Shown piece after piece: positions 1 through 55,600 of a stretch of DNA of 64,000 nt. A model generated the notes under the pieces. The model was not told the origin of the DNA and did no database searches. It saw only the letters and a list, made by a program, of their open reading frames with translations. A program made the translations under genes and the position numbers. This stretch comes from Catajapyx aquilonaris (lineage: Eukaryota): assembly GCA_000934665.2 (NCBI GenBank), contig JYFJ02001493.1, forward strand, positions 1-64,000, in the 5' to 3' direction. The first letter of the stretch is position 1; each line of letters begins with the position of its first letter.

Positions 1-1670
1 GGGGGGGGCATTTCTTCTTCGGGCTTGGGGCGCAAAAAACCTTAATGCGGCCCGATGTGCTACATCTGGTTATGTACTGTGAGACATGCAGAAACGAGCA
101 ACAGACTGACCTGTAAATGTTCAAGCATGAAGACAAATAAAAAAGGCGTGATCCAATAATTGAAGATGCCACATATGCCAGAAGCAGCAACATCCATGAT
201 GCACAGTCCACCAGAGTGACACGTTTCTGTCTGACATGGGTCATTTTATAGCATTCCTGGCATATGGTAATGTAACCCCTGAATAGCCTTATTTTTCAAG
301 AAAGCTCGTATATAACATCTTACTGAATTATTGAAACGAAGGAAAGATGAGAGATAAGAGGATAAGACCATTTTTGCGAATATGTAGGCTTTAGGATGAA
401 TACTGAATAATAGGCAAAGGTTTAAATTACGTTCTTAGATAATATCCTGCATATGTCCACTCCAAATTCGATATTCTAACCTTCAGACATTGAGAAGAGT
501 TTACGCTGCAAGTGAAAATATCACTTTTCACAAAGTGTTCACACAATCCATAACTTTTTTCATGTTCTCCTCTTGAACTGTATGGACTTGGATAGTGCAC
601 CACTTTGTCGATGATGTAGCTCTACAAATACAGTATGGTGACACATGCAATTACTGTATAATAAAAGAAAAACTTTTTTTTTCCAGAGCAGATAAAAATC
701 TGTATTGCAATAACTTATTTGTACACAAGATTATTTTGTGACATATTGTCCATATCATTTCGAGATTCACATAATAAGCGAGGAGAAATACAACAACTGA
801 TTGTGACTATCAGCAAGTATTTCCACAACAGGCAGCACCCATACATTTTCCATTGAAAGTACAGTATGAGTAATGAGATCTGATTACACACGTCCCTGAC
901 ATGAAACCTCAAGGAGATTCACCAAGTTATTATGACAACAATAAGCCACATGTCACACATTCATTCTTCAGCACGAGTTACAGAACGCATCAGTTAGAGC
1001 TGTCAACACAGCACTACTTGCTTATTAAGTGCGAGAACATTTTTATTCCTTAGTCGTAAACCAATGTGACCAGTGGTATGTAATGAAACATTTCATAAAA
1101 CTGAGATGGAATGCAAATTATTGGCTAATAACCTGGATTGAAATACTTCCACTAAAAGTGTGTGCCACTTCCTACATTTGTTTCCGATAATGTGTACATG
1201 TATGAGATTCTAAAGGTCATCAAAATAAAAGCTAACCTAATGGACATAATGGACAACACAGTTTGTACTACCGGTACATATTATGTAAAAATATAAGTTA
1301 ATGAATAATGATGATTTGCTGAACACTCGAGTGTACAGCAAATCATTAATTGGTAATGATGAGATGCTGGATAGATCAACAGAGCAAAACTTCCTTCTTA
1401 ATGCTCCAACCTTTAGCCCTGTGCAATTTGTTTCAGCCTAATCTCTTAATAAATCATGAGTCGTACATAATTATCATGATCTCAATCATTGAGCTAAAGA
1501 CAGCAGAACAACTCCAACAGAAATGCAATGACTAACAGGCCACTTTCATTTGTACACATCACCATGAACCTGATTTTAGCGTATCATAGTTGGTGAAAGG
1601 CCCGCTTGCTCTTTGAAGTAAAAATATACCAAAAATTGTACCAGTACCTCGCCGGTACCTTTAAATAATA

Positions 1671-1780
1671 TCACTTGTTGGGACCAATATCGAGGATGGA
1701 TTCAGGAATGCCAAACTTCGAATGTTGATGTGGGCTCTCATTACACTCAGCATCTAGCAGTGTATATGAAGTGTTCCAAT
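1671..1780 (-). CDS. CEPT1: Candidate alternative last coding exon of CEPT (DWNTSYTLLDAECNESPHQHSKFGIPESILDIGPNK*)
   Basis: Strong acceptor ttttccttttgttctgcag at 1781. It is phase-1 compatible with an internal donor AACG|gtatga at 3310/3309 and the frame is open to TGA at 1673-1671. Confidence 0.6.
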
Positions 1781-3253
1781 CTGCAGAACAAAAGGAAAAA
1801 GGCCACATGTTAACAAAACGGTAGCCGTGATTTTTGGTAGTACATTAGAGTGCATGACAGAACCATCAACATTCAAGTTAAAAGCTCCCCAGAAAGGTTC
1901 GTGAAAGCAAACACAAGAAATCACATTCGTATTGATGCATTACTATATATTTTTCTCCAAATATTTTCATGACCCACATATTATGCCTGCGTTTATTTAA
2001 GTAAATATGTACCACTGATACAGCCCATTGCAGATCACAACCAAGAAAACCTCTAAAAAAAAGTGTCACAGCAGAGAAAGGAGAGTTGGAAGATTCACCC
2101 ACTCACATTTATTCGTGGACAAATCACCACAAAGGTGGAAGATACAGACGAAAATTAATTTCTAACATGGAACAAATGGCAAGAACAACAATGGGCTCAG
2201 TATCCTGGGTTAAAACTAACGCTGCTTCTTTTTTCTTTCTCTTTTCTTCCTCCTCCTTCTTCCATGAGTATAAATATGACTATGAGTTGTATTGTTCAAA
2301 ATATCTATACCTCTTCCCATTCACGAGTTTGGTTTGGTCAGCATACAAAAAAAACAATTCAAGTTACGTCATTGGTATCTTGGCATTTTCAATTGGCAAT
2401 CCACATACACCAACTAACTTTTAAAATACACGTAACGCAAAAAAAAATTATTTTGCCTCTGGTCATGTCACGATGTACTGAACCATCGACCGCATACATA
2501 GCGCAGCATGTTCAGTAATTAAAAATTAATTTCAGAATGTGGATGAGGAGGGAATATATTAATTTTCATTGTGTAGTTTGAATGTCAAATAAATGTTGTA
2601 TTCTACTCTACCAAAAAAAAAACATGGTAAATCACAAAAAGGAAGCTCTGCTAACACCTAATGAGCATTAGTATTTGTAATCTTGGAAAAAACCAACTGA
2701 GTTAAGCATAAATGAAACTACTAAACCCATGACCTTGATATGTTGCATGTTAGACAACAAAAATCGCAGGAAAAAAGTTAACGGAAACCCATGAAAATAT
2801 CACAGAATGAACTTGTGCCAGGTTAGACAAAAAAAAACAACAACTAAATGTTCTCTACAACATAAAGGTAAACGAAAGAAAACAACCCATGCTACTGGTA
2901 CATAACACCATTAACAAGCTACCAAATTTCACCTATGATACTTATTTATATACATACAATATATTTACAATCGGTAACCAAAAGCCTTGTTAACAGTGAT
3001 AAAGAAATATAGTTTATACTGTACAATATATCACAACTCAAAAAATAGGAAGATGTAAATCAAATTATTGAAATATTAATAAATCTTTTCCAAATAAGCA
3101 CGTAACCAAAAAAGAAAAATAAATTGCAGCCCACATAATATAATACATTAAAATAAGAAAATTACATCAGGATTAGGAGCTGAATTTTTGTTCCAAAAAA
3201 GTTTTGGTTGTCACCACACAACAGTGGGAGTTGAGAGGGGGGCAAAACACACT

Positions 3254-6200
3254 TCACTTCTTGTCATCTCTTCCGCCTCTAATGCGACTTGACCTGGCAG
3301 AATTCATACCGTTTCGGTCGCTTCCGGCCAATGAATGTGGCGGTGGAATTATGGTGAACAAGCTGATCCTCAAATGTTCACAGATCTCAAGACAAACTTG
3401 GCTGCAGTATCTGAACAGGTCCCAAATCACCCATAACTGTAAGCACAAGTCGTCATTTAGGAAATTCATGAGTTAAAATAGAAGTCTCTAAATTAAGTTT
3501 CTGTCGGTATCGACATTCGTTCGCATGTCATACATACAGCACTGTCACATGCACCGTAACAAAGAGTTACGTACGACTTCAACACAAATGACATTAAGTA
3601 GGGAACAATCAGGAGTGAGCATACTTACCAAACAAAGCCAGAGCACATAGTACTCCTTGATGAAGAAGTTGAAGTATTGGTTGAGGAAGAGCATGGCCGG
3701 TCCTATTAAGGCCGAGTCAAGATAATCCATCTCGCTCTTTGTCATGTGCGCTACCTGCATATCCCACAAATTTTTAAGTAATGGCTAACAAGAGTCTGGT
3801 CACTGGAATAATTAAACACACTCACCACTAGCCTGTTGGTGACTTTGGCCGAAACAAGGCCAAAAGCTATGATGTAGAGAGCAGGATGCTCTTCGTACAC
3901 ATGCTCTATACTCTTCCTATATATTATGAAGGCTGGCACTATTACCAGCCCAAATGGAATTATTGGCGATAAAACACTTGTTCCCTGGATAAGAGAAAAT
4001 TACTTTAAAACATGTCAAAGGTTTTAAAACGTGCACAATACAATGGACGAACTAGTTTTAATGCATAATAATGTGTGTTGCAATCACCCTACCCAGATGA
4101 CATGTAGGACATGACATGACAGTTCTAGTGTAATTTTTTTTAAAGGGGAACAATTAGGAAAAATTTAAGTCACATTTCTCCTATAACTTTTCAAAAGATG
4201 ATCAGCAATATTTTCAAATTATTTTAAATTTTCCTTGTCATTTCATGAAGCTGACAGTTGTCCTTCATCTCTGTCTAGCAAAAATTGCCTACTTTGCACA
4301 GTAAATAAAACATGTTGATGAATGCATGCATCAACATGTTTTATTTGCATCACAGTTATTATGCTTAAAACTCCCAGCATGCAACTATTTACAGTTGATA
4401 CAAAACATTACAACAAAACTACAGAAGAGAAAGAGAAGATCGAAGCACATTAAATGTAGCAGAAATTATGCATTGCTAATATGTGAGGGTCCGTTCCAAT
4501 CACAACTTACGGCCACAGTGGATCCGTTTTTCCCAACTCCACCCGTAAATATAACGGAGAAATGTGACTGGGCAAGCAGCCACGAGATGAGCAATGCCAC
4601 TGCCACAGGAATGGACTTTACCTCCAACTCTATGAGAGGCAGCTTGCAGAGAAAGGAGCAGAACAATGCATGTTGAGACAGTTAGCGTCAGTTGCGGTTA
4701 GTAAGGGTCGGGTTGGGGGTAACAAGAGGTGTTAGTTTCCCAAGCAGGCAACACGTCGCACACAGCAAGACTTACGGCGACTGTGGACCCGTTCCTTCCA
4801 ACTCCACCAGTGAGGATTACGGTAAATTGAGAATGAATAGCAATGGCTCCGAGTATTACAACGGTTAGAGCCACAAGCATCTTTACAGTTAAGCCTAGTA
4901 CCTGGCAACAATGAAGAGGCCAATAATTAGTGAGTGTTTTTTTTTTCCCCTTTCCCCTTCTTTTTTAAAACTACTACAGTTTTCCATTCCCACCCCCACT
5001 CATGCTCCTGAAAAGTAAGGAGACCAGTACAACCAGCCCCTATCATGCTAGTGTTAATCTGCAAAGCATATGAATATAGAAATATGAGAGTCGATGTATC
5101 GAAGCTGGGCGACGACTTACGGCCACAGTAGAACCGTTCTTCCCGCAACCGCCTGTCAAGGCAATTTCAATATTCTTGTATAGGGCATAAGTGGCAGGTA
5201 CACTTGCCACTACCAAGAAAACAATACTATACTCCATGTTTACCACGGGAATCTGAAATACAAGCTCACTTGTTAAGTGCTTTAGCATGTCAACTTTTAG
5301 TACAAAGCACTGCACAACCATTCATGTAAACACTTTAAAAAATAGTGGGTAAATATTATTCCAGCCTAACTAACATCAATTTTTCATGAAATACCAGACT
5401 TTTTTTTGAAAAATAATACGGTACATTGTCCTTCTACATACTTAGACTTGTTTCGGAAGTGGCACAGGTTCAAGGTTCAGACTTACAATCATCAAATTGC
5501 AAAACTGCATAGTATCATACCCCAAGACAAAGTCCGTCAAATTCCCTTCACTTTCATTTTGTGTAGCTATCCATTTTTGATATTGTGACATTGAAAAGTA
5601 ATCATGTTTGAGTATGCACACATCGTGTGTCTTCTATGCATGACACGATACCATCACTACTGTAAAACCTCTCTAGAGAGGTCTCTCCAGTTCGCAAAAG
5701 TTTTCTCCATATAAAATATGGGTCTGATACATAGTAACAAATACTAAACCTTATCCACAGGGAACAAACAAAAATTCTGCATTGGACTTTGTATCCATAG
5801 TCCATTTCATCTAGTAAAATTATTGAAGTGATTCATTAACCTGATAAAAATTATTCACTTTCCTGTAGGGATTGATTTCACTTTTCTAACAGTTGCTCTA
5901 GATCTCTCGCTTTATCAGTTACACCTAAAAATAAAATAATAAATAAATAAAAATCAACCACATTTTGGGGTCAGGAAGAATTATTCGTGGTTATCTACCC
6001 GCAACATCCTGTAACAAAAAATGACCAATGTTCAATGCAATTATCTATAGAAACAGAATGTGACCATCAGGTGAAGCAGTATGGATTTACACTTCCTGAT
6101 TACTGCGAGTTGAGCACCTCTGATATAATGATAGCTGCATTAATTTTTTTCTTTGTTTCGCCTTGGATATTGAAGTTTTGAGGTTCTTCACAACAATGGT

Positions 6201-9200
6201 TTCGTTTTGTGTATTAAATGAAGAAACATCACAAAAATTTCCTTTCAAATGCAGGATTAAATGTCCTTATGCAACTAATATTTTTCTCACGACATACGGT
6301 GGCAAAAATTCTCACAAACAAAATCCTGAAATAAAAAAATAAAATCAGTAAAAGTAATATGGCTTCAAAAAAAAAAAGTGTACCAGCACTTAATATCCTA
6401 AAATGAACCATAGTTAATGCAAGATGGCGATATCTTGTAACCACCAATTTCACAATATCTCTGATGTAAGGCACAGGAAATAAGTCTACATAAAAACTAG
6501 GTGTTCTAGTGAACTGAATGCTAACATTGCAAATCCTCAAGTCAGCACAGTGGTGAACTTTACCCCATCAGTTTAACACACTGGAAGACACATGGAGTGG
6601 CTACCATACCAGATTAAACACAAACTGATTGGACAGGATGATTGTTTAGAGAACATGCCAGCCTTGCTCATATTATGCCCTGGAAGGCAGCTCTTCCAGT
6701 TCAGTTTTGCATGCTGAACATACTCATGTGATACCAATACAACCTGATCATAGACTGCTGTAACAAAACTTCATGATGGTACCACACTCTTTATATCACG
6801 GACTCACGATGGATGAGTAAACAGCACCTCATTACATATGCCATGGTCTCTTAATATTCAGTTTATTCAGGCCATGATTGACAGTCATGCTTACCTTAAC
6901 GGACCAAATGGATGAACCAAATATTGCTGATGCGAGATGAACTGCCATTAAACCAAACTGTGCTTCTGTGACGTCAAACCTTCCAAACCGCAATGTACCT
7001 GAAATGTACATTTATTGATACAGTACTGCCCTGTGATTAAACTTAAAATGTGTTCCTACCAGACACATAGGTTTGCCAGTGTGCGCAATAGAAGAGGGTC
7101 ATCCCAACAAAACACTGGTAAAAAACCCATCCTGGGTACACTCCCAACTGGCAGGAAATGCATGCAGATAAGGCTGCAAATACTAAGAGAGAAAAAATAT
7201 GTAAATTCTGAATAATTTGACATGACAAGAATATTTTACCAGTGGAGAGTGAATCACATCCGTGGTCGAAAAGCTCTCCCAACGGACTCGAAGTACCAGT
7301 TCTTCTCGCCTGCTTCCCATCAATAGCGTCCAGGCTCTGATATATGAAAAGGCCCAAAGCGCATAAAAAGCAGGCCCACCTTGGCACCTGAAATAAATAA
7401 ATAAATATCCCTATAAAATCACTGGCATCAACAATATTGGCGGGAGAAGAAGAAAAAAAACAAAACATGTTGACTCATACTAAACACATCAGCAGGATTG
7501 TTTATCTGACCCCATATGGCCTGGACTTTAATCCTTGGTGGGGATACTACATATCAGGAATCTTCCAAGGGTCAACAGCATATTGTCACAATGTCACGCG
7601 TGTGAAAGTGAATGAATTCAGGTGTCAGCAAAGTTCATTTCAGGGCATTCAGCTTTCCTTCTGCGTTGCAGTTGCAAGGAGATGAATTATTAAACTGTAT
7701 ATGCTCAAACTGTATGACATTGAACTGCAGTAGTTTGCTCCTTTTTTCACCTCAGAAATTGCCTGACAGATAACTTTTCACAATGTTAACACCTGGTCTC
7801 TGGCTTCTCCGCATAATCACAGTGTCCTTATGCAGTGCTCCATGTGTTGCAGTATTTCTAACCAGCTTGTAACCACTCATGAATAATGGATAGCATCTGG
7901 ATAACTCAAACATCAGTCCAGTATTTCGTAATGCGCATTAACACCCTTCCATTGTATCTATTATCTATTAATAAATCAATCAGTATTCTGCTTCCACATG
8001 CATAACTTAATTCCGATGTGATTCTGCAGCATATAAATTTTTATCATGATCCGAAAGTGGCAAGAGTGATACCGTATGCTTTTCTAATCACTTGCCGAGG
8101 GCATAAAAACATACAATGGCCATGAAATCTTGACACTATAAAATGAGAAGAAATGAAAGTAATATACTCTCATTGTTATGACTCCAGAATTACATAATTG
8201 CATCGCAAATAAAAATTTCAATGGTAGTGCTTTATTCATACCAAAATTGAACTGCAACACACTACAAATTATTATTAACGATAGCAATTTCATTGTGTCA
8301 CCGTAAGCCCAAATAATACTCAATGTCATAAAATGTCGAATATTTTAACCATGTAACTCACATTCAGATGTAAGAATAATGTGACTTCCCACAAGGGACC
8401 ATAAAAATTCACACGTTTTGAACAAGGTATGGTGTTATGTAACCGACATGTGATATGATGCACTTATTGTACTCTCTCAAAGTTACTTGCCAGACAATAC
8501 GTTTTTATGACTACAGGATATGGCATTGCATTTGCATCGACAGAATATAACACGCCAATTGTGGATATCCATCAACAGTTACGTACTGTATTATCCTATA
8601 GTGTGGTGAATTGTGTCACTCATTAAGAAAAATAATTGCAATTTTATCTCACTTGGAGAAGTCCCAAATTGTTATCAATTGATCGATAAATACAAAAACT
8701 TTAAGTGGTTCACTTCCCCCTGCTCCTGTCTCCAAACGACCATTTATGTGATTTATTGCTTAGTGTTTGTTGTGCAACTTCTGGTCTCTCAACCTAAATC
8801 AAATACGACTTCCTTCAACAGCCACTGGAAAGTAAACGTTCCCTTCTCAGTAACAAAATTGTATGGCAGCAACCGACTAACTGGATCATTTACCATGATA
8901 TGCATTCGATGTGAACTGAATAATCCATTCATTCATCACAGCACAGCATTGTAACTGGAAAAATGCCCATAAATGATTTCTTACAATGTTTTTAAATAAA
9001 TAATAAATCTGAACAACATGATGAATCTTAAGATGTTGTAACATGACATGATCAGCCTGTTTATCTACGCATCAGCTGCATATTGTGCACTTTCTTATCC
9101 ATGGAATACGGCGACTTAGACCTCTTCTGAAGGCGGATATCTGATAAGACTGTTGTCATCCACGAGTACAAACACTGACACACGAATCAACCTCATGCCA

Positions 9201-9608
9201 TCCCAACCGTCACCTCGAACATATTAGCATACCAATAAGCATGCAATAAAAATTAATCGGTGGAGCAATTAGTAAATTATGCACCCTGTCAATTATTAAG
9301 AAAATGATCACAGTGCTGTCTGTTTGCATCCTTACAAATCATAGTACGCAGCAATGAGTGTCCATTACCTCTTCCTTGGCGTTTGGACTGTAGTAGACGA
9401 GCACGAGGCTGGTGAGTATGTTGATGGCCAGCCCCAGGACCGTGATGAGGTTAGGTGCCAGCCAGAGAGGCACCTTCCCCACAAGCCAGTTCCACAGCCC
9501 CTGCATGTAAGGGTCAAGCAGGCTGCTGCTGGCACAGCTGTACTTGTGCTCTCCCAGTCGCTTCAGCTGGCCACTGGTCAGCACCCTCCCTCGACCCATC
9601 CCCAGCAT
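3254..9608 (-). CDS. CEPT1: Choline/ethanolamine phosphotransferase (CDP-alcohol phosphotransferase, CEPT1/CHPT1 family; Drosophila bbc-like), ~404 aa, spliced
   Basis: Exons (minus): 9608-9369, 7387-7240, 7182-7060, 6998-6895, one of 5252-5121/4901-4776/4642-4511, 3984-3826, 3754-3629, 3436-3254. All introns are GT-AG and phases match. Contains the CDP-alcohol phosphotransferase motif [26 protein letters not shown], plus [39 protein letters not shown] and VAHMTKSEM. Confidence 0.95.
4511..4642 (-). CDS. CEPT1: CEPT alternative exon C ([44 protein letters not shown])
   Basis: 132 nt, phase 0/0, pyrimidine tract plus AAG acceptor, GCC|gtaagt donor. Confidence 0.88.
4776..4901 (-). CDS. CEPT1: CEPT alternative exon B ([42 protein letters not shown])
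   Basis: 126 nt, phase 0/0, tgccag acceptor, GCC|gtaagt donor. Confidence 0.88.
5121..5252 (-). CDS. CEPT1: CEPT alternative exon A ([44 protein letters not shown])
   Basis: 132 nt, phase 0/0, tttcag acceptor, GCC|gtaagt donor; paralogous to exons B and C. Confidence 0.88.
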
Positions 9609-10236
9609 CGCTCACTCCTTGGCTGGTTGTGCCTGGTTCTTCCTTCAGACCCACCTGGTCCTTGTTGTGTTTGTGTGCTTGGAGAGACACAAGAGAGTCT
9701 TTCCCTCGTCTGCAGCTTTCACTTCGCACTGAAATCAGCATCACACTACTGGATGCAGGGACTACTACCCGACCCTGCGACGTCACTCGCACTAGTCACG
9801 TGCATGCGGGGACTACTACCTGCGCAACGCAGGTTCGACCTTTCCGTGAATGTGCGCTGCCATGTTGAATCCAGGATGCGTCAAAACATTTCCAGCTAAA
9901 TTTCAAGCAAAATCTGACCGATTTTCGAATTTCAGACCCTCGGACCCCTCAAAGTATGACCTCCAAAAGTCATTTCCTATGCTGCACGTGGACTTTGACA
10001 ATCCAATTTTAGGAAGCCGTGTACTGTAACATTATTTTCGTTCGCATCAATATTGCATCTGCGAACTTGTTACCACATCCTCTCAATGACATGTCTTATT
10101 TCGGTTGTGGCACGGAAGGACTATTGATTCCAATGACAACTTGACAAGTAGCGAAATGTTCCCGTAGGACACACTTCAGGCTACATTTATGTACGTGTAA
10201 CAACACATTTGCCAACCGAACATTGTACGGTACCTT

Positions 10237-10237
<1 letters not shown>

Positions 10238-10295
<58 letters not shown>

Positions 10296-10298
10296 ATA

Positions 10299-10330
<32 letters not shown>

Positions 10331-10343
10331 GATGATGATGATG
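10238..10343. repeat. (ATT)n microsatellite ending in (GAT)n
   Basis: Directly visible near-perfect trinucleotide run; it explains the poly-Ile ORF 10209-10526. Confidence 0.97.
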
Positions 10344-10789
10344 CTGTTGGAGAAATTCATGACATATAATGACGATTTCTCCCCCAGATATAATTCGGGC
10401 CTAATGCCAACTCCGAACTTGCTTTACTGCAACTGCAGAACTACAATTTTTAATAGCCTACCGTATATTGATCTGCAGTGGATTACTTGGGATATCGTGC
10501 CAGCCATAGGCTTAAAAGTGTGCTGAAATGGCATGCCATACGTTGCTGGAGTAGGCTATTATAGGACTTTTTTAACGTACTGTAAAAAATTCGGATAGGT
10601 ACCCAACAAATAGACTATGACGCACATAACTTTAGTGTGTAAGTAAATAAAAGCCAAAATGACGTCCTAGGAATCACTTCTTATGAAACCAAGTTACTCA
10701 ATGGCTTATTTTTCTCCGGTGTGTTATGTAAACACACGTCTATTTGGACCAGATCCTAATACAACATGACCATAATATTTTGGTTACGG

Positions 10790-11040
10790 ACCGTCGCTTC
10801 CGGCCGCCCACTAATCCCTCATCAACCTGGCATCATCGCATAATGAATTTCGGCAACATCTTTCCCCCAGCATCTTGAAGGAGTGACGACGGCAACTCAG
10901 CACCAAGAAAAGTTGAATGGGTTCGACCTCGAATCGGGAGATGGCAGACGGCCCTTGGGTACTTACAGAAGAGGATTAAAACTTGTTAGGTCACGAAATA
11001 TACCATGAAGCGACGGTACATGTGACAACAAGTGGGCGGC
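10790..11040. promoter_or_regulatory. CpG-rich candidate shared/bidirectional promoter between CEPT and the tetraspanin
   Basis: Lies between the divergent genes; GC boxes at 10805 (CCGCCC) and 11034 (GGGCGG); splice donors point outward on both strands (minus 10966, plus 11016). Confidence 0.45.
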
Positions 11041-11591
11041 CTGATTTTGGAAATTTTTTTGAAGAAAAAAAAATGTGAGTTGATTTTTACAACCGTTTTT
11101 GTGTGTGTGAGGGGAGTGGTCATGTTGAGGTCAGATTGAGGGTGGACTTTAGCCCTCCTGTGGGGCAATAACGTGACTAGAGAAAATTGTGTGTAGGACT
11201 TTGCTTGACATAACAAAAGTTTTATGACCTGTTCGAATCAAGCAATATGCACGTACGAACTACAGGGTGTCCCAAAACAGATGGTTAGAAAAGAAAAGGC
11301 TAGAAAATTGTAATTTCCATTTTTATGGGGGTGTACAAAAAGTAGGCTATATGCAAACAGTAGTTAAATTATTTTAGGGGTTGAACTCATCAATATTTAG
11401 AAAAAGTGACAATAATTTTTATATGGAAGTAGTAGGTATTTCCAGCCCTGGCCACATTTTTTTTTTCAAAAGCAAACACCCTCTTCAAACATTTTACTGA
11501 CAGCATAAAACCGGACATTCCAAGCATACCCATGTGGTCCTTTTTTCCCCGAAAAAAAATTCTGATTCAAACTTCCGTTCTGTTCAACATC

Positions 11592-11845
11592 ATGTCCTTC
11601 AGCTCCAATCCAGCATTGGTCAGAAGGCCGTCCGAGAACGATGACTCTTTGGTACAGGAATTTCCTTCCTTCGGATCCAGGGTTGGGTGGGTTGGCTGGC
11701 CATTCAAGCCAAAGATTCACGTAACAAATCCAGAGGGGCCAGACTCACTACTGAGGGTAGGTGGAAAAAAAGGTCAGTCACACCAGTGTTTTTTTTTGGA
11801 GGGAGACTGTGAGGATGATTACGAGACACGGGTTGGACCTTACAG
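11592..11845 (+). CDS. Candidate alternative first coding exon of the tetraspanin (MSFSSNPALVRRPSENDD...RVGPYR)
   Basis: ATG-initiated 254-nt open frame ending AG|gtgggt in phase 2, in frame with the acceptor at 13210. Confidence 0.35.
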
Positions 11846-12435
11846 GTGGGTACTCTAAAAAGAAGGGTGTTGGCCATTGGATTTTATTTGAACTGTTTAT
11901 GGGTAGGGAGTGATGATTGGGGTTGTGTAGGTGTGTTTTTTTAAAGAAAAAAAGTGACCAACCTTGAAGGTACAGTCGTTGGTACAGTGTATATACACAG
12001 GTGGCAAATATTGCAAAATAAAATTCAAATTCTGCATGAAAATAATGTTACGTCATATATATGTCAGTTAGCGACCATTTCCGGGTAATTTGCACAATTA
12101 TGACCTTTTGCAATAACCGCTTATCGATCATAGTTTGGCCTTGCAGACACAATTGGCAACACTCCGTATTATGCACACATGTAATATGTAAACCGATGCC
12201 TGGGTTGGCCGGCGGAGTTTTGCAAATAGAGCTGATGCCAGTGCATAAATGAGCAGCTCAACAGGTGGTCAGAGGTCGAGTGGTTGGGGCGTTCCATAAA
12301 ACACAAGGTTGATATACGTCACATACTGAAGGGGGAACAAACAAACTAGTCGTACACCCCCTGCACATACTGGCTGTGTATCTCGAGTGATATCAGCTCC
12401 CTATCTGTGCTTGTGTTGAGAGGTGGGCCTTAAAA

Positions 12436-12542
12436 ATGGCGAAGAAGAGGAAGGATCCGGAAGAATTGCAAATTTCTTGCCCTTTGAACAGATACGAGAT
12501 GGAGGCTTTTCAAAAAGGACCGATGGAGATAAGCAGAAAAAA
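12436..12542 (+). CDS. Candidate alternative first coding exon of the tetraspanin (MAKKRKDPEELQISCPLNRYEMEAFQKGPMEISRKK)
   Basis: Good start context aaaaATGG, 107 nt, AA|gtgggt donor in phase 2, in frame with exon 13210 (G CGC AGG ATG). Confidence 0.45.
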
Positions 12543-13216
12543 GTGGGTATATGCTATTTTTGAGTCAGTAATCTGCCAGGAAGGGTGATTAGGTCAAAGT
12601 TGCGATTACTGGGTAAATAAACATTGTGCGGTACGTCACGTGTTTGGTTCATGGTGCGTTATCTGGGCAGAATTATTGTGCTTAATGTTGCTTAGAAGAA
12701 GAAAAATCATATGTGCATTTCCAGGAGTAATAAGGTAGCACAAAATAGCCTCCAATGAGCGCCTCTCTTGGAGGCTATTTTGAGCATAAGATCTGCTACC
12801 TTACTCCTGAAAGTACAGTACACAGCAATGTCTCAAGTACTGTCCGGATATGCCCCACCTCTTCCTACAACAGTTGAGGTCATGATCAGACAAACCATAA
12901 TTGACAGCAACCACGCGGCAGGAACAGTGAGATGACATCACTTCAAATGGTCTAAATTTCCTCCAATTGAGTCCATGGTTGGGGGGTAAGTTGAACAAAC
13001 CCTCCCAGTGTGAAGTCTGTGTCTGTAACACATGGCCACGGGATATTACTTCCATCCTAGTTGGTTCCGGGAAGATATTTCCTGGGATTCATCTACAGGA
13101 GGATTTCGGTTCTGTTGAATTTTTTTCCCATCTGCGTACAATTATTTTTCCGTTCAGGATGTGTTGTTATTAAGCAAGGTAGTGATAATTTCCTGATTAA
13201 TTGTTACAGGCGCAGG

Positions 13217-16200
13217 ATGAGTCGAAGCGGGTACACGTGCATCCGGCACACGTTCTGCACACTGAACGTCCTTATGTGGGTAAGTATCCAATTTGATGCT
13301 AATCTGATTGCGAAAATTATTACAAAATGTGTTATAAAATAATATGCAACAAATAATTATAAATGATAAAATATGCAGTGTAAAACTATAAGCGCAATAT
13401 ATAGGTTAATGTATCATTTATTCACAGAATTTATTTTTTTAAATACCCCTCGTAGGGGGGACTCAGGGGAGGTTCCCAAGGAATTTTTAGTCATTTTTTA
13501 CTTTGTGAAATACACCAGACCTTTTTTCCTGGCCCTGGGCAGAGTAGGGAGTGCACTTCAATTCGCAGAAAATTATTTCAATGGCTCATTTATTGATTTT
13601 AATAGCGATTTCAACCCCTTCATTAGTATGAGCAATTTTATATAAAAATGAATACAAATTTAACGAAATTACTTGTGAGACAATTTGAGGGATAATAATT
13701 TTCTGTTGCATACCAGAGTGAACTTTTTACATTTTAAACCCATTTTACATTTCATTACAATTTTTATTGTTCTGAAATAAGTAGTGTGTTGACCTTATAT
13801 CCAACGAACCAACGAACTAATGTCGTCCTTGGTGTCTAGTTTCCCCCCACGTCTCTCGTCCCCAATTAAACCCAATTGGACTGATGTAACCCCCTCCCTT
13901 TGTATCCTGCTGTTGGCCTACTCTGCATATGTCCAAGGAATTAAATATAAACATGACAAAATGTACTGATATTGCCTCAATTTCCAGCTGGTTGGATGTG
14001 GCGTCTTGGGCGTCGGAATATGGCTGAGGTTAGCCTACGGAGGGTATGCAACCCTTCTGCCTCATTACTCTGTGCTGAGTGCTGACAGCCTCTGCATATC
14101 AGCTGGAGTCATCATGTTCGTGGTGGCCTTTTTTGGATGCTGCGGGTCATGGTTCCAGAACCGATGCATGCTTGTCACAGTACGTTGACAAAAATGGATT
14201 GATGCTGCCTTGAGTGTCTCTTGGCTGTTGTCCAATTGTTAGACAAATTGTTTACAAACAGTGTCCTTTTATGCCGACCCCAACAACCTTCATATCTGCA
14301 TGAGGAATGTAATGCCTTTTGCATGGTGTCTCTCTGGACCGGTAGCGATTCTTTGATGCAATTTTGTGGGAAAAAATTGCATAGTCACGCCATGCAGGAA
14401 GTAATTATATATCCAAAGTTGTGAAATGGTGCGAACCATCTGTTAGTAAATTATGACATAACTAAATAGGGAAGTGTATGTTTTGCTGGCATATTTCACA
14501 GCGAGTTAATTCAAGGTGAACATCAGAGTAGGCTACAACTTAATGTACAATAATCAGTATCAATTTACATAAAACAACATTACCTGGTAGTACAGTACAG
14601 CATGTTCAGTTGTTCCAACAAGATCCATTCAAGGATTTTCAGAATAAATGCCAAACAATGGTGTCATTGAGAATGTTGAAATCACATTCATTGAGGCTGT
14701 CACACATTTTCAGGACGCTGACTCAGAACTATTCACGTTGGAACATAACATAAGTGTAAACATCCTAAAATAGACCTGTAATAATTGTGAATGGCTGACC
14801 TAGACTTGTGTTTGCAGTACTTTGGCCTGGTGATATTCGTCTTTCTATTGGAATTCCTGGTGGCCACCCTAGCTTTTGTCTTCCGCAAAGGGTTGGGGGC
14901 CACCCTTCAAGATGAGCTGAGAATAGGCATAAGAGAGCACTACAACACGTCCATGGACAACAGCCTGCATGTCACATGGACACACATACACGATGAGGTA
15001 AAAAACATAAAGACAACTTTTCCAGACAAGTTTTGTTAATATTCTTTATGGTTTCAGTTCCACTGCTGCGGCATAAATGGATATGATGATTGGTTTGACA
15101 TCAAAGCCTGGTCTGGGAAGTCGTATGTGCCGGACTCCTGCTGCCTCCCCAAGTTCAGAAACCTCACAGGTAAAATATGGATGGAAAAAATCGTGGTTTT
15201 CAAAGGCTTTAGAAATAGATCTACACAATTATTTCTTCCGATTATGTAATAATATTGGGTTTTCTTGCCTTATCATAGCAGAACTGGGGACAACCCGCAC
15301 CAGACTATCAAGTGGTAGTTCAAATGCCGTTTTAAATCATTTGCAAAGGTGTAATATTGTGCAGTAGTTTTCGCATGATGTATTTTAATAAGAGACTGAA
15401 TTGATTCCGCTACGCCCATCAGTTGTGTATACTGTCGTAATTTTTACATTTCAATATTGATTTATGGTATGTTGCAAAATTGTACATATTTGCCCACACA
15501 GCTGCATGATCTGTCAGCCTCAGGGTCATATATAGTGTGCATGGTGGTATTTTCAAAATGTAAAAATAACCCAGAATATGCCAACTGTGGCTTCTGTCAG
15601 GGTGGGGAGTGTAAGGGAACAAAATTATTTTGTGTTTAATTCAGGAAATGACGTTTTTTTTGCATTCACTCTGTATTGTAAAGGTAACTTTGCAATAACT
15701 TTACTCCAAAAAAACATGTGAAATATTGGATATACAGTTTGTGGCGTAGGTAACATTTGTACTTTTATATAGCCTCCTTTCGTCTTATCATTGCACAAAT
15801 GTTTGGTCAGTTATTAATATTTAAAACTCTACTTTCAGACTGTGGAAAGTCGGAGAATGCTGAGATGTGGTTCCACAAGGGATGTGCCGAGCAAGTTCAG
15901 ATGTGGTTTGTAGAGAGGCTACATGTGGTTGGAATCGTTGGCTTAGTCGTCTCTTTTGTCCAGGTACGCGCACACCCATTTCATTTTTTAAATACCTGAG
16001 AATGTGTGATTCAAACGTTAGTGGGTTATTTCCTTTTGATAAATTCAATGCACTGCTTGATGAAACAAGTTTCTTCACTAATCTCTCATTTGATAATTAA
16101 AAGTGAAGTCCATCACGTATTGTTGCACATGCTAATTAAAACAATTATTGCAATTAAGGGTTAATCTTTCCTACCAAATATGAAGCATTTAAATGTAGAA

Positions 16201-51798: not shown

Positions 51799-52607
51799 GT
51801 AAGTCATACATAATTTTTGGGGGGGTCAATTTGTGTTTTTGTTACAAACATAGCATAGTGACGTATATATTTATTTTTAAATGTGTAAATATGTTTTAAG
51901 TGTAATTTTATAGTTAAAATTCGTGGCCTGCATAGTGCGCAACAGGTTATAACCAGTGGGTGGGATGCGTTAAAGGGGTGGTGGAAAGTAGGACGATGAG
52001 GTCTGCGACCGTGGTACGTTCCAGCAGGAAAAAGAAGTGGAAGCAGTTCTTCAAGGTTGAGGAACGCTCTTGAAGTTAGCAAAAAAAAAAATATCTCTTC
52101 CACGAACTTACAAGTTGAGTGAAAATATATTTTTTTTCTTCGGAAATTTTTTGGATGCCCTCAATTTCTCTTTAGGTTTTTCCCTGCAGGTGAGCGTACA
52201 GGTGAAAGTCTGGGGATGGATTTTAGTGTGGGTGGGTTTTGTTCTTGGAAGTACCAGGCAGGTTTGGTTAATCGATCGTCAAGCGCACAGTTGTTATGCG
52301 GAGTTCAAAGTCTGGATGAGTGATGGTAATGAAATATATATAATATAAAAAAAAAGAGAAGGGCACGGTCTTAACCTACATTTCTTGAAAGGCAGAACGT
52401 GGCAGAGTCCAAAACTGTTGTGCATGGTGGAATACAACCTTGAAGGATGGGCACGGCATTAAAAAAAAAGCATGGTAAAAAACATAGAGAGGTGTTGCCT
52501 TGAGGGGGATTTGAGTTGTTTGTAAACGGGTTTGGCGTTTTCCTTCCCCCTCACCTTGTGGCGAATACAAGGTTTCCCGTCCACTAATTTTAACAATTTT
52601 TTTTCAG

Positions 52608-55600
52608 ATGGCCCAGACTGTACCCTCTGCAGGATATACACCACCTCCAGATTACACCGCAATTACTGAAGGATTTGATCTGTCGCTTCTGCAGGACAGC
52701 GAGGTTCCATCACCGTCCAATTTCCAGGGGGCCATGTACGACCCTACTTCACCTCTTCATATGTTCCCATCTCCGCCACATGAAGGCTCGACCATTTACG
52801 ACCTGAAGTTGACAATGAAAGTGGCACCTAAGCAACAAGTATGGTACCAGACAACGCCGACACCTTCGCCTCCGTCGTACCAATGCCCATCGCCAGCAGT
52901 CACGATCAAGACCGAGTTCTGCGAGAACACTTTTGACTTGGAGGAACTCCTGAAGGAACCACTGTTGGAGAAGGTGATGACCCCAGTTGTCGGATCGCCC
53001 CAACAGCAAGTACCGGAGCTGCCGTCGTACCACCAGCTGCATTCTCCATTGCCCTGCAAGACAGAACCGGCTTCACCGCAGTCTCAAGACCACCAGCTTC
53101 TTCGACAATGTCTGCGAGACACCAGCTTCCAGAAAAAGTACAACCTGAAGCCCATGGATTTCGACCTGGGATACGGAATCAAGAAAGAGGTGGAGGAAAA
53201 TGATGGTCTGCAGGAACAACTGACCAAGGAGAAGATAGAACCGGTTTTAAGCCTGGCTTACGAGCAGCTGAAAGGGGACATCGACGCCACCTGCAAAGCA
53301 CTCAACATCTCACCAGGTGGGCACAATTGACACTTTATTTTTAACCCCCCCCCCCCCAACACCTGGCAATGAGGTCGTACCTAGTAGGCCACAAATTGAC
53401 GCACCTGACCGTCGGCCATGCGCGTGACATTTGGCCTTTAAGTAGGACAAATTTTTTTAAAAACATGCAATGCACGCATTTTACTAAAAAACAATTACAA
53501 TTTTTTTAGTACGTCAAAAAAGGGCGTGTCGATATGTGCGCCTCCACATGTCATGAGTCACACCTGGCAAATACAACACAGGATATGCAAATGGTAACCC
53601 AATCTTCGTGTACCACTTTTTTTTTCCTGCAGCCGCCCACGATGGTCCATCGGTTGCATTTCTTTGCCGCATTGACGTAAGCGGCCGTATCTATTTCCAA
53701 CAGCCCCCGGTCTGCTCCCATGCTTATCAACAGTCACTCTCGGCTGGTTATCACTGCCACGGTTAACCTCACATATATATATATATTTCAAAACATAAAA
53801 ATCATAGTAAGTGGTGGACGTCCTTGTAAAAGTTTAGGTCCAGCTGCCACAACTTATCAAGGTTACTATTAGCGAAGGTCGACCGGTCTGATGTGTACCC
53901 ATCATCTTTCTCTTGAAAACTGTACCGGCGGACAGTAACTTTCAACAATTTGGTATGCGACGCCCATCAGGGTTTGGGTGTGGCCAATTTGAAAAACTCC
54001 GGGTACCACACCTATGTTCGTCCGTGACACCCGAAGAGGTCACGTAGCCACTTTTGACAGTTGGGTCACACAAAAGTTGGCACAAACACAGGAAGCGTGC
54101 CAAAACGGTTCTAGGAACAACATGAATGAAATACCGGCACATGGTTATTTTTGTGGCCTGTTTACTTTTAGATTCTGGTACTATTTTTGTGGTTTTTATT
54201 GTTGCAGATCCGACCCAGTGGTCTGTTGATGAGGTGAAAGCCTGGTTGTTGTGGACACTGCGACAGTACAATCTGCCTGAAATATCAATGGAGTACTTCA
54301 ATATGGATGGGATCGCCATTTCAGCAATGACCGAGGATGATTTCCGCCAGAGAGCATCACAGGTTAGTCACCTATCATTGCCCCATATTTTAATATTACT
54401 ACCGTATAAAAATAACTAATAATTTAATTACCCCCACAGTGTGGAGACACATTATATGCCCAGCTGGAAATATGGAAGAATGTGCACCAACGCAGTCTGA
54501 CTGGCAATATGGACTTTTGTCTGGACAACTCCATTCTTGATCTGGACGCACTGTTGCAATGGGGAAGCAACGCCTCTAGTGGCGAACCCAGCCCACCAGG
54601 CCACGCCGAAAGTGACGGTAAGTGTCACAAAAATATTTACACAATGCGGAAAAAAAAGCTAGGACCCCACATGGTTATCTATCACCTTTTTTTTCTAACC
54701 TAAGACCTTGATCTTCTGGCTTAAGGAACAAGGTTCATAGGCGGCTCTAGATCCTAATCTCAAACCACTCTAGCTGAACCCACACCCTAAAGGCATGTGA
54801 GTTTGCCCTCCAAAGACGCCGATTGTCTCTATAACATGAGGTGTGACACAAGGCCACTAGTTCGATCAAAGTCTAATTACTATCAGCAAAATGAACAAAC
54901 ATAAACTTTGACCAGTTTGCACACATGTTTACTGCACATTTTGTGCCACTTGTCAATACCAATATTTTTTTTCTTCATGTGTGTAAAATAATTGGCTGAA
55001 ATTGAGGCGCCAAAATGGCGCCGGTTGGCATCCCACGCGAGAGTTGTAAGTCGTGCAGTGCTCGTGGCCGAGCCCTGAAATGCCCTGGGGCGAAGCAAGT
55101 CCTGGTTGGTTGGAAAGGTAGGACAGTGGTAAGGTGGATGTGTAGAGGAGGAGGGGGTTGCAAACAGCGATTTCAGGGTCAGAGTGCCAGGTACGCCGTG
55201 GAGGCCGACTAGCCTCGCTGTAAAGGGTGCAGAAAAATTGGCGACACAAAACGTTCTTACAAAAATTACATAATTTTTTTTTAAAAAAAAGAAGCCTAGG
55301 TTGTTTTCATTCATGAGTTATTTTAGGGTGGTTCTCGCCTCGTTCGTGACCAAGGAACACATTTTTAGATGCCAAGGTGGAACTGCGCCAGAGAAAGTAG
55401 AACAGTTGTGGTTTTTGCCAAAAAAAAATGAGAGAGACTTGGGTCATGATGGCCAATGGCCGGTTGTTGCTCACTGAATCTGCTGTGGAATGTTTCCACT
55501 CGGATTAGTCTCCAATTTGTTCAGCTTCTTGCTTCCCATTCTGACGTCATCAAATGCTCCAGTCACCACTTGACCTCCTGCCTCAGGTGTGCTGATGTCA

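Follow-up and report, generated by a model that had tools for sequence, protein, structure and literature searches.

Gene content of the window

The DNA analysed here, hereafter the window, is a stretch of 64,000 nt from Catajapyx aquilonaris (contig JYFJ02001493.1, positions 1 to 64,000). On its minus strand it carries a single gene of the CEPT/CHPT type which, judged by its predicted protein, is the choline/ethanolamine phosphotransferase of an insect-like arthropod and resembles Drosophila bbc; the enzyme activity, transfer of phosphocholine or phosphoethanolamine to diacylglycerol, is likewise predicted. The subject of this study is a cluster of three tandem exons within this gene, 5A, 5B and 5C (A, B and C below), which lie between two constitutive exons.

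The open reading frame (ORF) at 7043-7474 matched the Pfam family PF01066 with an E value of 5.1e-9 and a score of 37.1 bits against a cutoff of 22. The same ORF matched the CHPT1/CEPT1 structures 9uet, 8gyw and 8ero in the PDB, with E values of 2e-35 to 3e-33, and a signature motif of the PF01066 type was read in it. The signature of the cytidine diphosphate (CDP)-alcohol phosphotransferases is worded DG-x2-AR-x8-G-x3-D-x3-D. An earlier reading of this DNA, made from the letters and the ORFs without database searches (the sequence-only reading), had named the gene as a CEPT of phospholipid synthesis, an identification that the Pfam match (E 5.1e-9) and the best structure match (E 2e-35) bear out.

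Insect CEPT proteins tiled the minus strand in eight exons by tblastn, covering residues 5 to about 400, and the exon boundaries were then read from the sequence (Table 1). The resulting gene model comprises 1206 nt and 401 amino acids (aa) with exon 5A or 5C and 399 aa with exon 5B; any single one of the three keeps it in frame. When exon 6 was compared with the database, insects were the closest among the matches listed, with Gryllus at 91% identity and many other insects at 83-87%.

Three homologous exons in tandem

Exons A, B and C were found to be intact, open, homologous and in phase 0, and they stand between exon 4 (6998-6895) and exon 6 (3984-3826). Their lengths of 132, 126 and 132 nt, and their positions as given in the sequence-only reading, agreed with both the sequence and the stop-to-stop ORFs. 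The acceptors are tttcag/ for A, tgccag/ for B and tgcaag/ for C (a slash marks the exon boundary), each with a pyrimidine-rich tract. All three exons share the donor GCC/gtaagt and a peptide ending of TGG(C/V)G(K/R)NGSTVA, two features that had been described correctly from the letters. Since the upstream flanking exon ends and the downstream one starts in phase 0, any one of the three exons fits the frame.

In the protein alignment the other two copies were 31% and 34% identical to exon A, and the ten invariant columns all fell in the C-terminal motif (T33, G34, G35, G37, N39, G40, S41, T42, V43 and A44). Within the last 12 codons, 8 of these 10 invariant residues were encoded by differing synonymous codons among the copies. 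A direct-repeat search grouped the three 3' ends into one family, and insect CEPT proteins matched all three exons in tblastn, with E values from 8e-12 to 0.38. Conservation of the motif residues despite synonymous divergence indicates old copies under purifying selection, as the sequence-only reading had proposed. On these patterns of codons and residues, A, B and C are old tandem duplicates that selection on the protein has preserved, and neither a recent duplication nor an assembly error accounts for them.

When 146 peptides of such exon variants were compared with positions 3000-10000 of the window by tblastn, significant matches were obtained solely at A, B and C, the rest having E > 0.005, and this comparison found no fourth copy or relic exon. 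A 19-nt segment of the upstream intron (5994-6012, minus strand) matched the motif-coding part of exon A at 84%. It contains a stop, lies at chance level by estimate and yielded no tblastn relic, and it was rejected as a candidate.

Table 1. Exons of the CEPT/bbc-like gene and intron features in the window (aa, amino acids; TM, transmembrane helix)
Feature	Position	Strand	Remarks
Coding exon 1	9369..9599	-	ATG at 9599-9597; second in-frame ATG at 9608-9606; donor GAG/gtaatg; tblastn with insect CEPT, 60-67% identity
Exon 2	7240..7387	-	CDP-alcohol phosphotransferase motif; matches to Pfam PF01066 and PDB CHPT1/CEPT1
Exon 3	7060..7182	-	Matches to PDB and insect CEPT; boundaries from sequence
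Constitutive exon 4	6895..6998	-	Phase-0 end ..IWSVK/; equals TM5 of human CEPT1, assigned from the TM5 residues given in PMC10156783 and the translated human exon of the PMC5740500 supplement
Alternative exon 5A	5121..5252	-	132 nt, 44 aa; predicted TM6 and loop; most diverged of the three copies
Alternative exon 5B	4776..4901	-	126 nt, 42 aa; predicted TM6 and loop
Alternative exon 5C	4511..4642	-	132 nt, 44 aa; insect LLAQS type; copy nearest vertebrate TM6
Constitutive exon 6	3826..3984	-	Phase-0 start /GTSVLSP; 91% identity to the Gryllus orthologue
Exon 7	3629..3754	-	tblastn with insect CEPT; boundaries from sequence
Last coding exon (8)	3254..3436	-	Stop TGA at 3256-3254; tblastn with insect CEPT; frame from sequence
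Bipartite intron segment	4168..4213	-	Two arms 19 nt apart, downstream intron
Hairpin	4303..4346	-	Perfect 18 bp, arms 4346-4329 and 4320-4303, downstream intron

Position of the exons in the CEPT1 structure

HMMER alignment to the chain of 8gyw placed exon C at chain positions 212-255 (E 3.5e-5), exon B at 214-255 (E 1.3e-3) and exon A at 212-255 (E 0.06). An offset of 27 was applied to the numbering, the CEPT1 model being described as covering residues 28-407 (PMC10156783), and the check on this offset gave C226, T227, S234 and Y238 of 8gyw as Cys253, Thr254, Ser261 and Tyr265. The equivalents of the exons in human CEPT1 are residues 239/241-282, which comprise the sixth transmembrane helix (TM6) and the TM6-TM7 loop GGVGKNGST. 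The sequence-only reading had assigned one membrane helix plus the GGVGKNGST loop to each exon, and all three exons indeed aligned to TM6 and its loop (8gyw 212-255).

According to PMC10156783, Cys253 and Thr254 of TM6 contact the acyl tails, and Ser261 and Tyr265 are polar residues atop the hydrophobic chamber. At the Cys253/Thr254 position (human C/T), exon A has A/S, exon B T/V and exon C V/A. The position of Ser261 is occupied by A in exons A and B and by L in exon C, and that of Tyr265 by N, Q and H in exons A, B and C, respectively. Positions 253, 254 and 265 vary among the three exons, position 261 sets C apart from A and B, and the loop is fixed.

Diacylglycerol or product is described as likely to pass laterally through the cleft between TM5 and TM6 (PMC10156783, PMC10182977). 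The account of Xenopus CHPT1 in PMC10182977 gives TM6 as loosely packed, with the dimer contacts on TM7 and TM9, and the enzyme as having 10 TMs with both termini cytosolic. The TM7/TM9 dimer interface lies outside the swapped exon.

The cluster in related sequences

Homologous proteins from two protein searches were pooled into a set of 218. One variant was carried by 172 of them and two or more by 32; in 11 the flanking exons were joined directly, and 3 were fragments. Isoforms of a single species that differ by the TM6 exon alone were present in Athalia rosae (X4/X5/X6), Cotesia glomerata (X1/X3/X2) and Drosophila virilis (X2/X4). All 11 full-length proteins derived from Logan had exactly one variant, and so did all 12 intronless, transcript-like metagenome contigs with the motif. 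Among the transcript-derived sequences of the orthologues, nearly all contain a single variant.

Contigs L018 and L020 were 96.8% identical, and 62 of their 66 mismatches fell in bins 650-849 of L018. The variant exon occupies 693-824 in L018 and 706-837 in L020. Going by this distribution of mismatches, the two contigs are a natural isoform pair from one gene.

At the genomic level, a hymenopteran-like locus (L033) contained three such exons in the order A, B, C, with a GTAAGT donor on each, and models in which two or three exons are read through showed the same order. Two tandem TM6 variants were carried by the genomic contigs L040:796-1497, L041, L065, L072:5895-6452 and L053:1545-2120, indicating that two-exon clusters exist outside the three-type insect pattern. 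A scorpion model (P0002) has two variant types. When exon B alone was used as a protein query against a database of 5.8 billion sequences, 51 candidates were returned, none with E <= 10; the exon is too short for this search, which was uninformative on relatives.

The cluster was absent from 11 annotated insect isoforms, in which ..W..K is joined to GTSVLSP (P0006, P0030, P0042, P0047, P0048, P0059, P0064, P0083, P0089, P0123 and P0168). Two Drosophila species are among them. TM6 would be lost from these proteins, which may represent a minor product or an annotation habit.

Three exon types in insects

A subset of 58 rows, hand-picked from the 146 variants to cover orders and types, was used for the tree with shuffled labels and for the approximately unbiased (AU) tests. 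The insect variants form three types, and the type labels clustered as observed in 0 of 500 shuffles. Type A has the pattern ..LY..F.VIFTGG; type B has ..F/Y.GY.H.F..F.. (GY at 19-20, F27, F31); and type C has.P....E.K..P.......LLAQS.. (P2, E7, K9, P12, LLAQS). Mean identity in the variable part was 37-57% among exons of one type and 7-15% among exons of different types.

By hand count, 13 positions show a conservation of 80% or more among 30 C-type exons, and exon C of the window keeps 11 of them. Its mean identity in the variable part was 45% to type C (maximum 53%), 18% to type A and 8% to type B. Over the full 44 columns, identity reached 66%, and the C-type clade had a support of 89 in the Shimodaira-Hasegawa-like approximate likelihood ratio test (SH-aLRT). 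Exon C is, by these residues, of the conserved insect C (LLAQS) type.

Probable use of one exon per messenger RNA

We interpret the cluster as three tandem-duplicated, alternatively spliced exons, of which each mature mRNA most likely contains exactly one, and we expect the isoforms to differ in lipid handling; we give this interpretation a probability of about 0.82. Exons would be used in this way in the organism of the window as well. Each mature mRNA would take exactly one of A, B and C. Each version would supply TM6 together with the invariant TGGxGxNGSTVA loop, and the catalytic motif, TM5 and the TM7/TM9 interface would stay constant. With a single exon, a normal ten-helix enzyme would result. 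With two exons or none, the helix count would be altered, and TM7-10 would be inverted relative to the catalytic half, because the protein has ten TMs with both ends in the cytosol and one helix would have been added or dropped.

Several observations weigh against this interpretation. The exon lengths are multiples of three, and neither joint inclusion nor skipping would shift the frame or lead to nonsense-mediated decay. The introns between the exons measure 219 and 133 nt, and all splice sites are GT-AG. Introns of 219 and 133 nt are not short enough for steric exclusion. We recognised no sequence feature that forces exclusivity among those checked, namely intron length, frame, splice-site type and RNA pairing. 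Windows of 28 nt from the flanking introns were compared with both inter-exon introns by RNAduplex, and no docking/selector pairing common to the two introns stood out; the best joint value was about -22 kcal/mol, with long internal loops and without shuffles. Among the 218 homologues, the gene models with more than one variant (32) and those that skip the cluster (11) include RefSeq isoforms of several species, suggesting that splicing may be leaky. Finally, exons A and B carry neither the insect A nor the insect B signature, their mean identity in the variable part being 14-20% to type A and 8-13% to type B. With these signatures lacking, it is their intactness that argues for the use of A and B.

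An alternative that accounts for some of these points is that A, B and C are ordinary cassette exons, combined as none, one, two or three, and that the multi-exon or exon-less products are meaningful and not noise. Every junction combination is in frame, and two or more variants (32/218) or none (11/218) do occur in models, several of them RefSeq-numbered. However, every transcript-derived sequence examined had one variant (11/11 Logan proteins and 12/12 intronless contigs), many of the multi-variant entries are unreviewed 'hypothetical protein' models, and a changed helix count would invert TM7-10. We consider combinatorial inclusion improbable.

A second alternative concerns the two copies without insect signatures. 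Exon C alone may be functional, as the ancestral type, with A and B unused or decaying duplicates. C is the sole copy clearly in a conserved insect type and is nearest to vertebrate TM6, whereas A and B lie on long branches (0.53 and 0.57). Exon A, with a mean identity of 14% to type A, was unplaced in both trees. Exon B lacks GY at 19-20, F27 and F31, has a mean identity of 13% to type B and took a tree position near type A. The AU test nevertheless left both the grouping of A with insect type A (p 0.68) and that of B with insect type B (p 0.74) unrejected. Both exons also retain open frames, canonical splice sites, a hydrophobic segment of helix length and 10 invariant residues despite synonymous divergence, and insects maintain three types. 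Disuse of A and B is very improbable in our judgement, and the use of any one of the three exons per mRNA is preferred.

Candidate pairing element and hairpin in the downstream intron

Perfect Watson-Crick helices of at least 11 nt were sought in the pre-mRNA from 6998 to 3826, and four were found. Two of them involve the bipartite segment of the downstream intron: its arm 4213-4201 can pair perfectly over 13 nt with exon 4 (6931-6919), and its arm 4181-4168 over 14 nt with exon 5C (4569-4556). The hairpin at 4346-4303 was the third helix, and the fourth, 11 bp long and rich in A/T, lay in the upstream intron. When the whole of this stretch was subjected to 100 dinucleotide shuffles, 4 of them had a longest helix of 14 bp and none a longer one. 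Of 5000 shuffles of the downstream intron, 15 contained a 13-mer and 6 a 14-mer complementary to one of the four exons. None of the 5000 had two such sites, for different exons, less than 60 nt apart, in a test designed after the pattern had been seen.

The two helices, one with exon 4 and one with exon C, cross each other in the manner of a pseudoknot. When the intron element was folded against each exon as a long-sequence duplex, the structures were over-extended and uninformative. Perfect exon-intron helices of at least 11 nt were not found in L033, L040, L053 and L072, the downstream intron of L033 being incomplete. The bipartite element may act as an RNA bridge that joins the upstream donor region to the distant exon C, and we treat this candidate as a lead only. 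The hairpin had a fold energy of -23.1 kcal/mol (z -3.3), and an Rfam scan gave only sub-threshold, microRNA-like matches. Either the insertion of a small palindrome or a regulatory stem could account for the hairpin.

Elsewhere in the window, a Pro/Ser/Gln-rich open frame of 271 aa without a Pfam match was observed at 52515-53330 on the plus strand, where a neighbouring gene probably has one of its exons.

Comparison with known systems

The cluster is not new: it has already been catalogued for Drosophila bbc and annotated across insects, and the window adds another member. The novelty hinted at in the sequence-only reading was set too high, as bbc is in published sets of mutually exclusive exons (MXEs) and its isoforms are annotated in many insects. 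In PMC3303723, bbc (CG6016) is named among the Drosophila genes with mutually exclusive exons. The Drosophila gene list of PMC5740500 was taken, according to the methods of that paper, from Hatje & Kollmar 2013, and its supplement lists CEPT1 and bbc as an orthologous pair, both with such exons, under the entry 'orthologous exon: true, orthologous MXEs: false'. CEPT1 is not named in the main texts of PMC5740500 and PMC9741552. Mentions of bbc in PMC13253536 and PMC13701588 proved to be reference-list artefacts.

Drosophila bbc and its insect orthologues, which RefSeq annotates as isoforms of 'cholinephosphotransferase 1' or 'choline/ethanolaminephosphotransferase 1 bbc', share with the window the gene family, the exon slot from ..W..K/ to /GTSVLSP, the three tandem variants and the TGGxGKNGST ending. 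They match the window in the type of exon C but not in A and B, which lack the insect A and B signatures. Exon B of the window has 42 aa, not the 44-45 of insects, and the neighbouring exon is at best 91% identical (Gryllus).

A second known system is a tandem exon pair of human CEPT1, listed as cluster 215 of Hatje et al. 2017 in the PMC5740500 supplement. There, the pair, labelled 'Frame-shift', consists of an annotated 85-nt exon and an intronic candidate, FDVTESQIIIIICQLLTGTLGPWFWNFT, and the alternative version of TM5 reads FDVTESQIIIII... Counting from Asp212 in the human exon reproduced Val213, Val216, Gln217, Phe219 and Ile220, the TM5 residues that PMC10156783 gives as lipid contacts, with Val216 cited as changing diacylglycerol use. 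The alternative exon replaces Val216 with Ser and Phe219 with Ile, both at published lipid-contact positions. The human exon is reported in PMC8373072 to be conserved to sharks and rays. The statement of the sequence-only reading that vertebrates have the TM6 exon once was not contradicted, but human CEPT1 does have a reported alternative copy of the adjoining TM5 exon.

The human pair and the window cluster belong to the same enzyme, offer a tandem exon as a substitute and encode walls of the same cleft, and the intron between the TM5 and TM6 exons has the same position and phase in both. They differ in the exon that was duplicated, TM5 in human and TM6 in the window. The window has one TM5 exon; no second copy resembling exon 4 was found in its positions 1-14000. 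Joint inclusion would break the frame in the human 85-nt pair, whereas it stays in frame for the arthropod exons.

The vertebrate paralogues CHPT1 and CEPT1 provide a third comparison. They are described as sharing a fold and differing in substrate range and location (PMC10182977, PMC10156783). Exons A, B and C all align to TM6 of these enzymes, but their diversity as paralogues arose by whole-gene duplication and not by the swap of one helix within one gene. A comparable exchange of a single TM segment with the rest constant is known from the exon pairs of voltage-gated sodium and calcium channels, which are channels and not lipid-synthesis enzymes.

Possible consequences of the helix swap

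In the proposed mechanism, diacylglycerol would enter and the phospholipid product would leave through the TM5/TM6 cleft, of which TM6 forms one wall. Because TM6 is a wall of this cleft, the isoforms are expected to differ in the lipid species that they accept or in the rate of product release. The published lipid-contact residues on this wall give a structural basis to the idea, put forward in the sequence-only reading, that splicing tunes diacylglycerol preference. An effect of the isoforms on substrate choice would follow from the position of these residues.

The exons may also be exclusive for another purpose, with the swap serving targeting to the endoplasmic reticulum, Golgi or nuclear envelope, protein stability or partner contact, and not diacylglycerol gating. 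TM6 is peripheral and loosely packed, and so faces the membrane and any partner proteins, and the link of the variants to substrate choice is one that we infer. However, published lipid-contact and chamber residues on TM6 differ among the three variants, and a Val216 change on the opposite wall, TM5, alters diacylglycerol use (cited in PMC10156783). We regard a role outside gating as a serious but rather unlikely alternative, and diacylglycerol gating as the preferred function of the swap.

A broader and tentative proposal, which we hold to be doubtful though worth stating, is that arthropods, with three TM6 exons, and jawed vertebrates, with two TM5 exons, independently made opposite walls of one lipid gate selectable by splicing, and that the intron element at 4213-4168 may further aid the choice of exon C. 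A literature search found no paper on a functional difference between the isoforms in either lineage.

The determinants of the molecular species of phosphatidylcholine and phosphatidylethanolamine in the Kennedy pathway are poorly understood, and structures from cryo-electron microscopy since 2023 suggest that the lipid gate is the TM5/TM6 cleft. The cluster would swap exactly one wall of this gate with the rest constant, and three versions are kept across insect orders, which would make it a clean natural experiment. The value of the present analysis lies in two connections, that of the cluster to these structures and that of the cluster to the vertebrate TM5 exon pair. If the interpretation is correct, one gene would give rise to enzymes with different selectivity for diacylglycerol species or head groups, chosen by splicing, and the natural exon variants would provide a ready map of the determinants of that selectivity.

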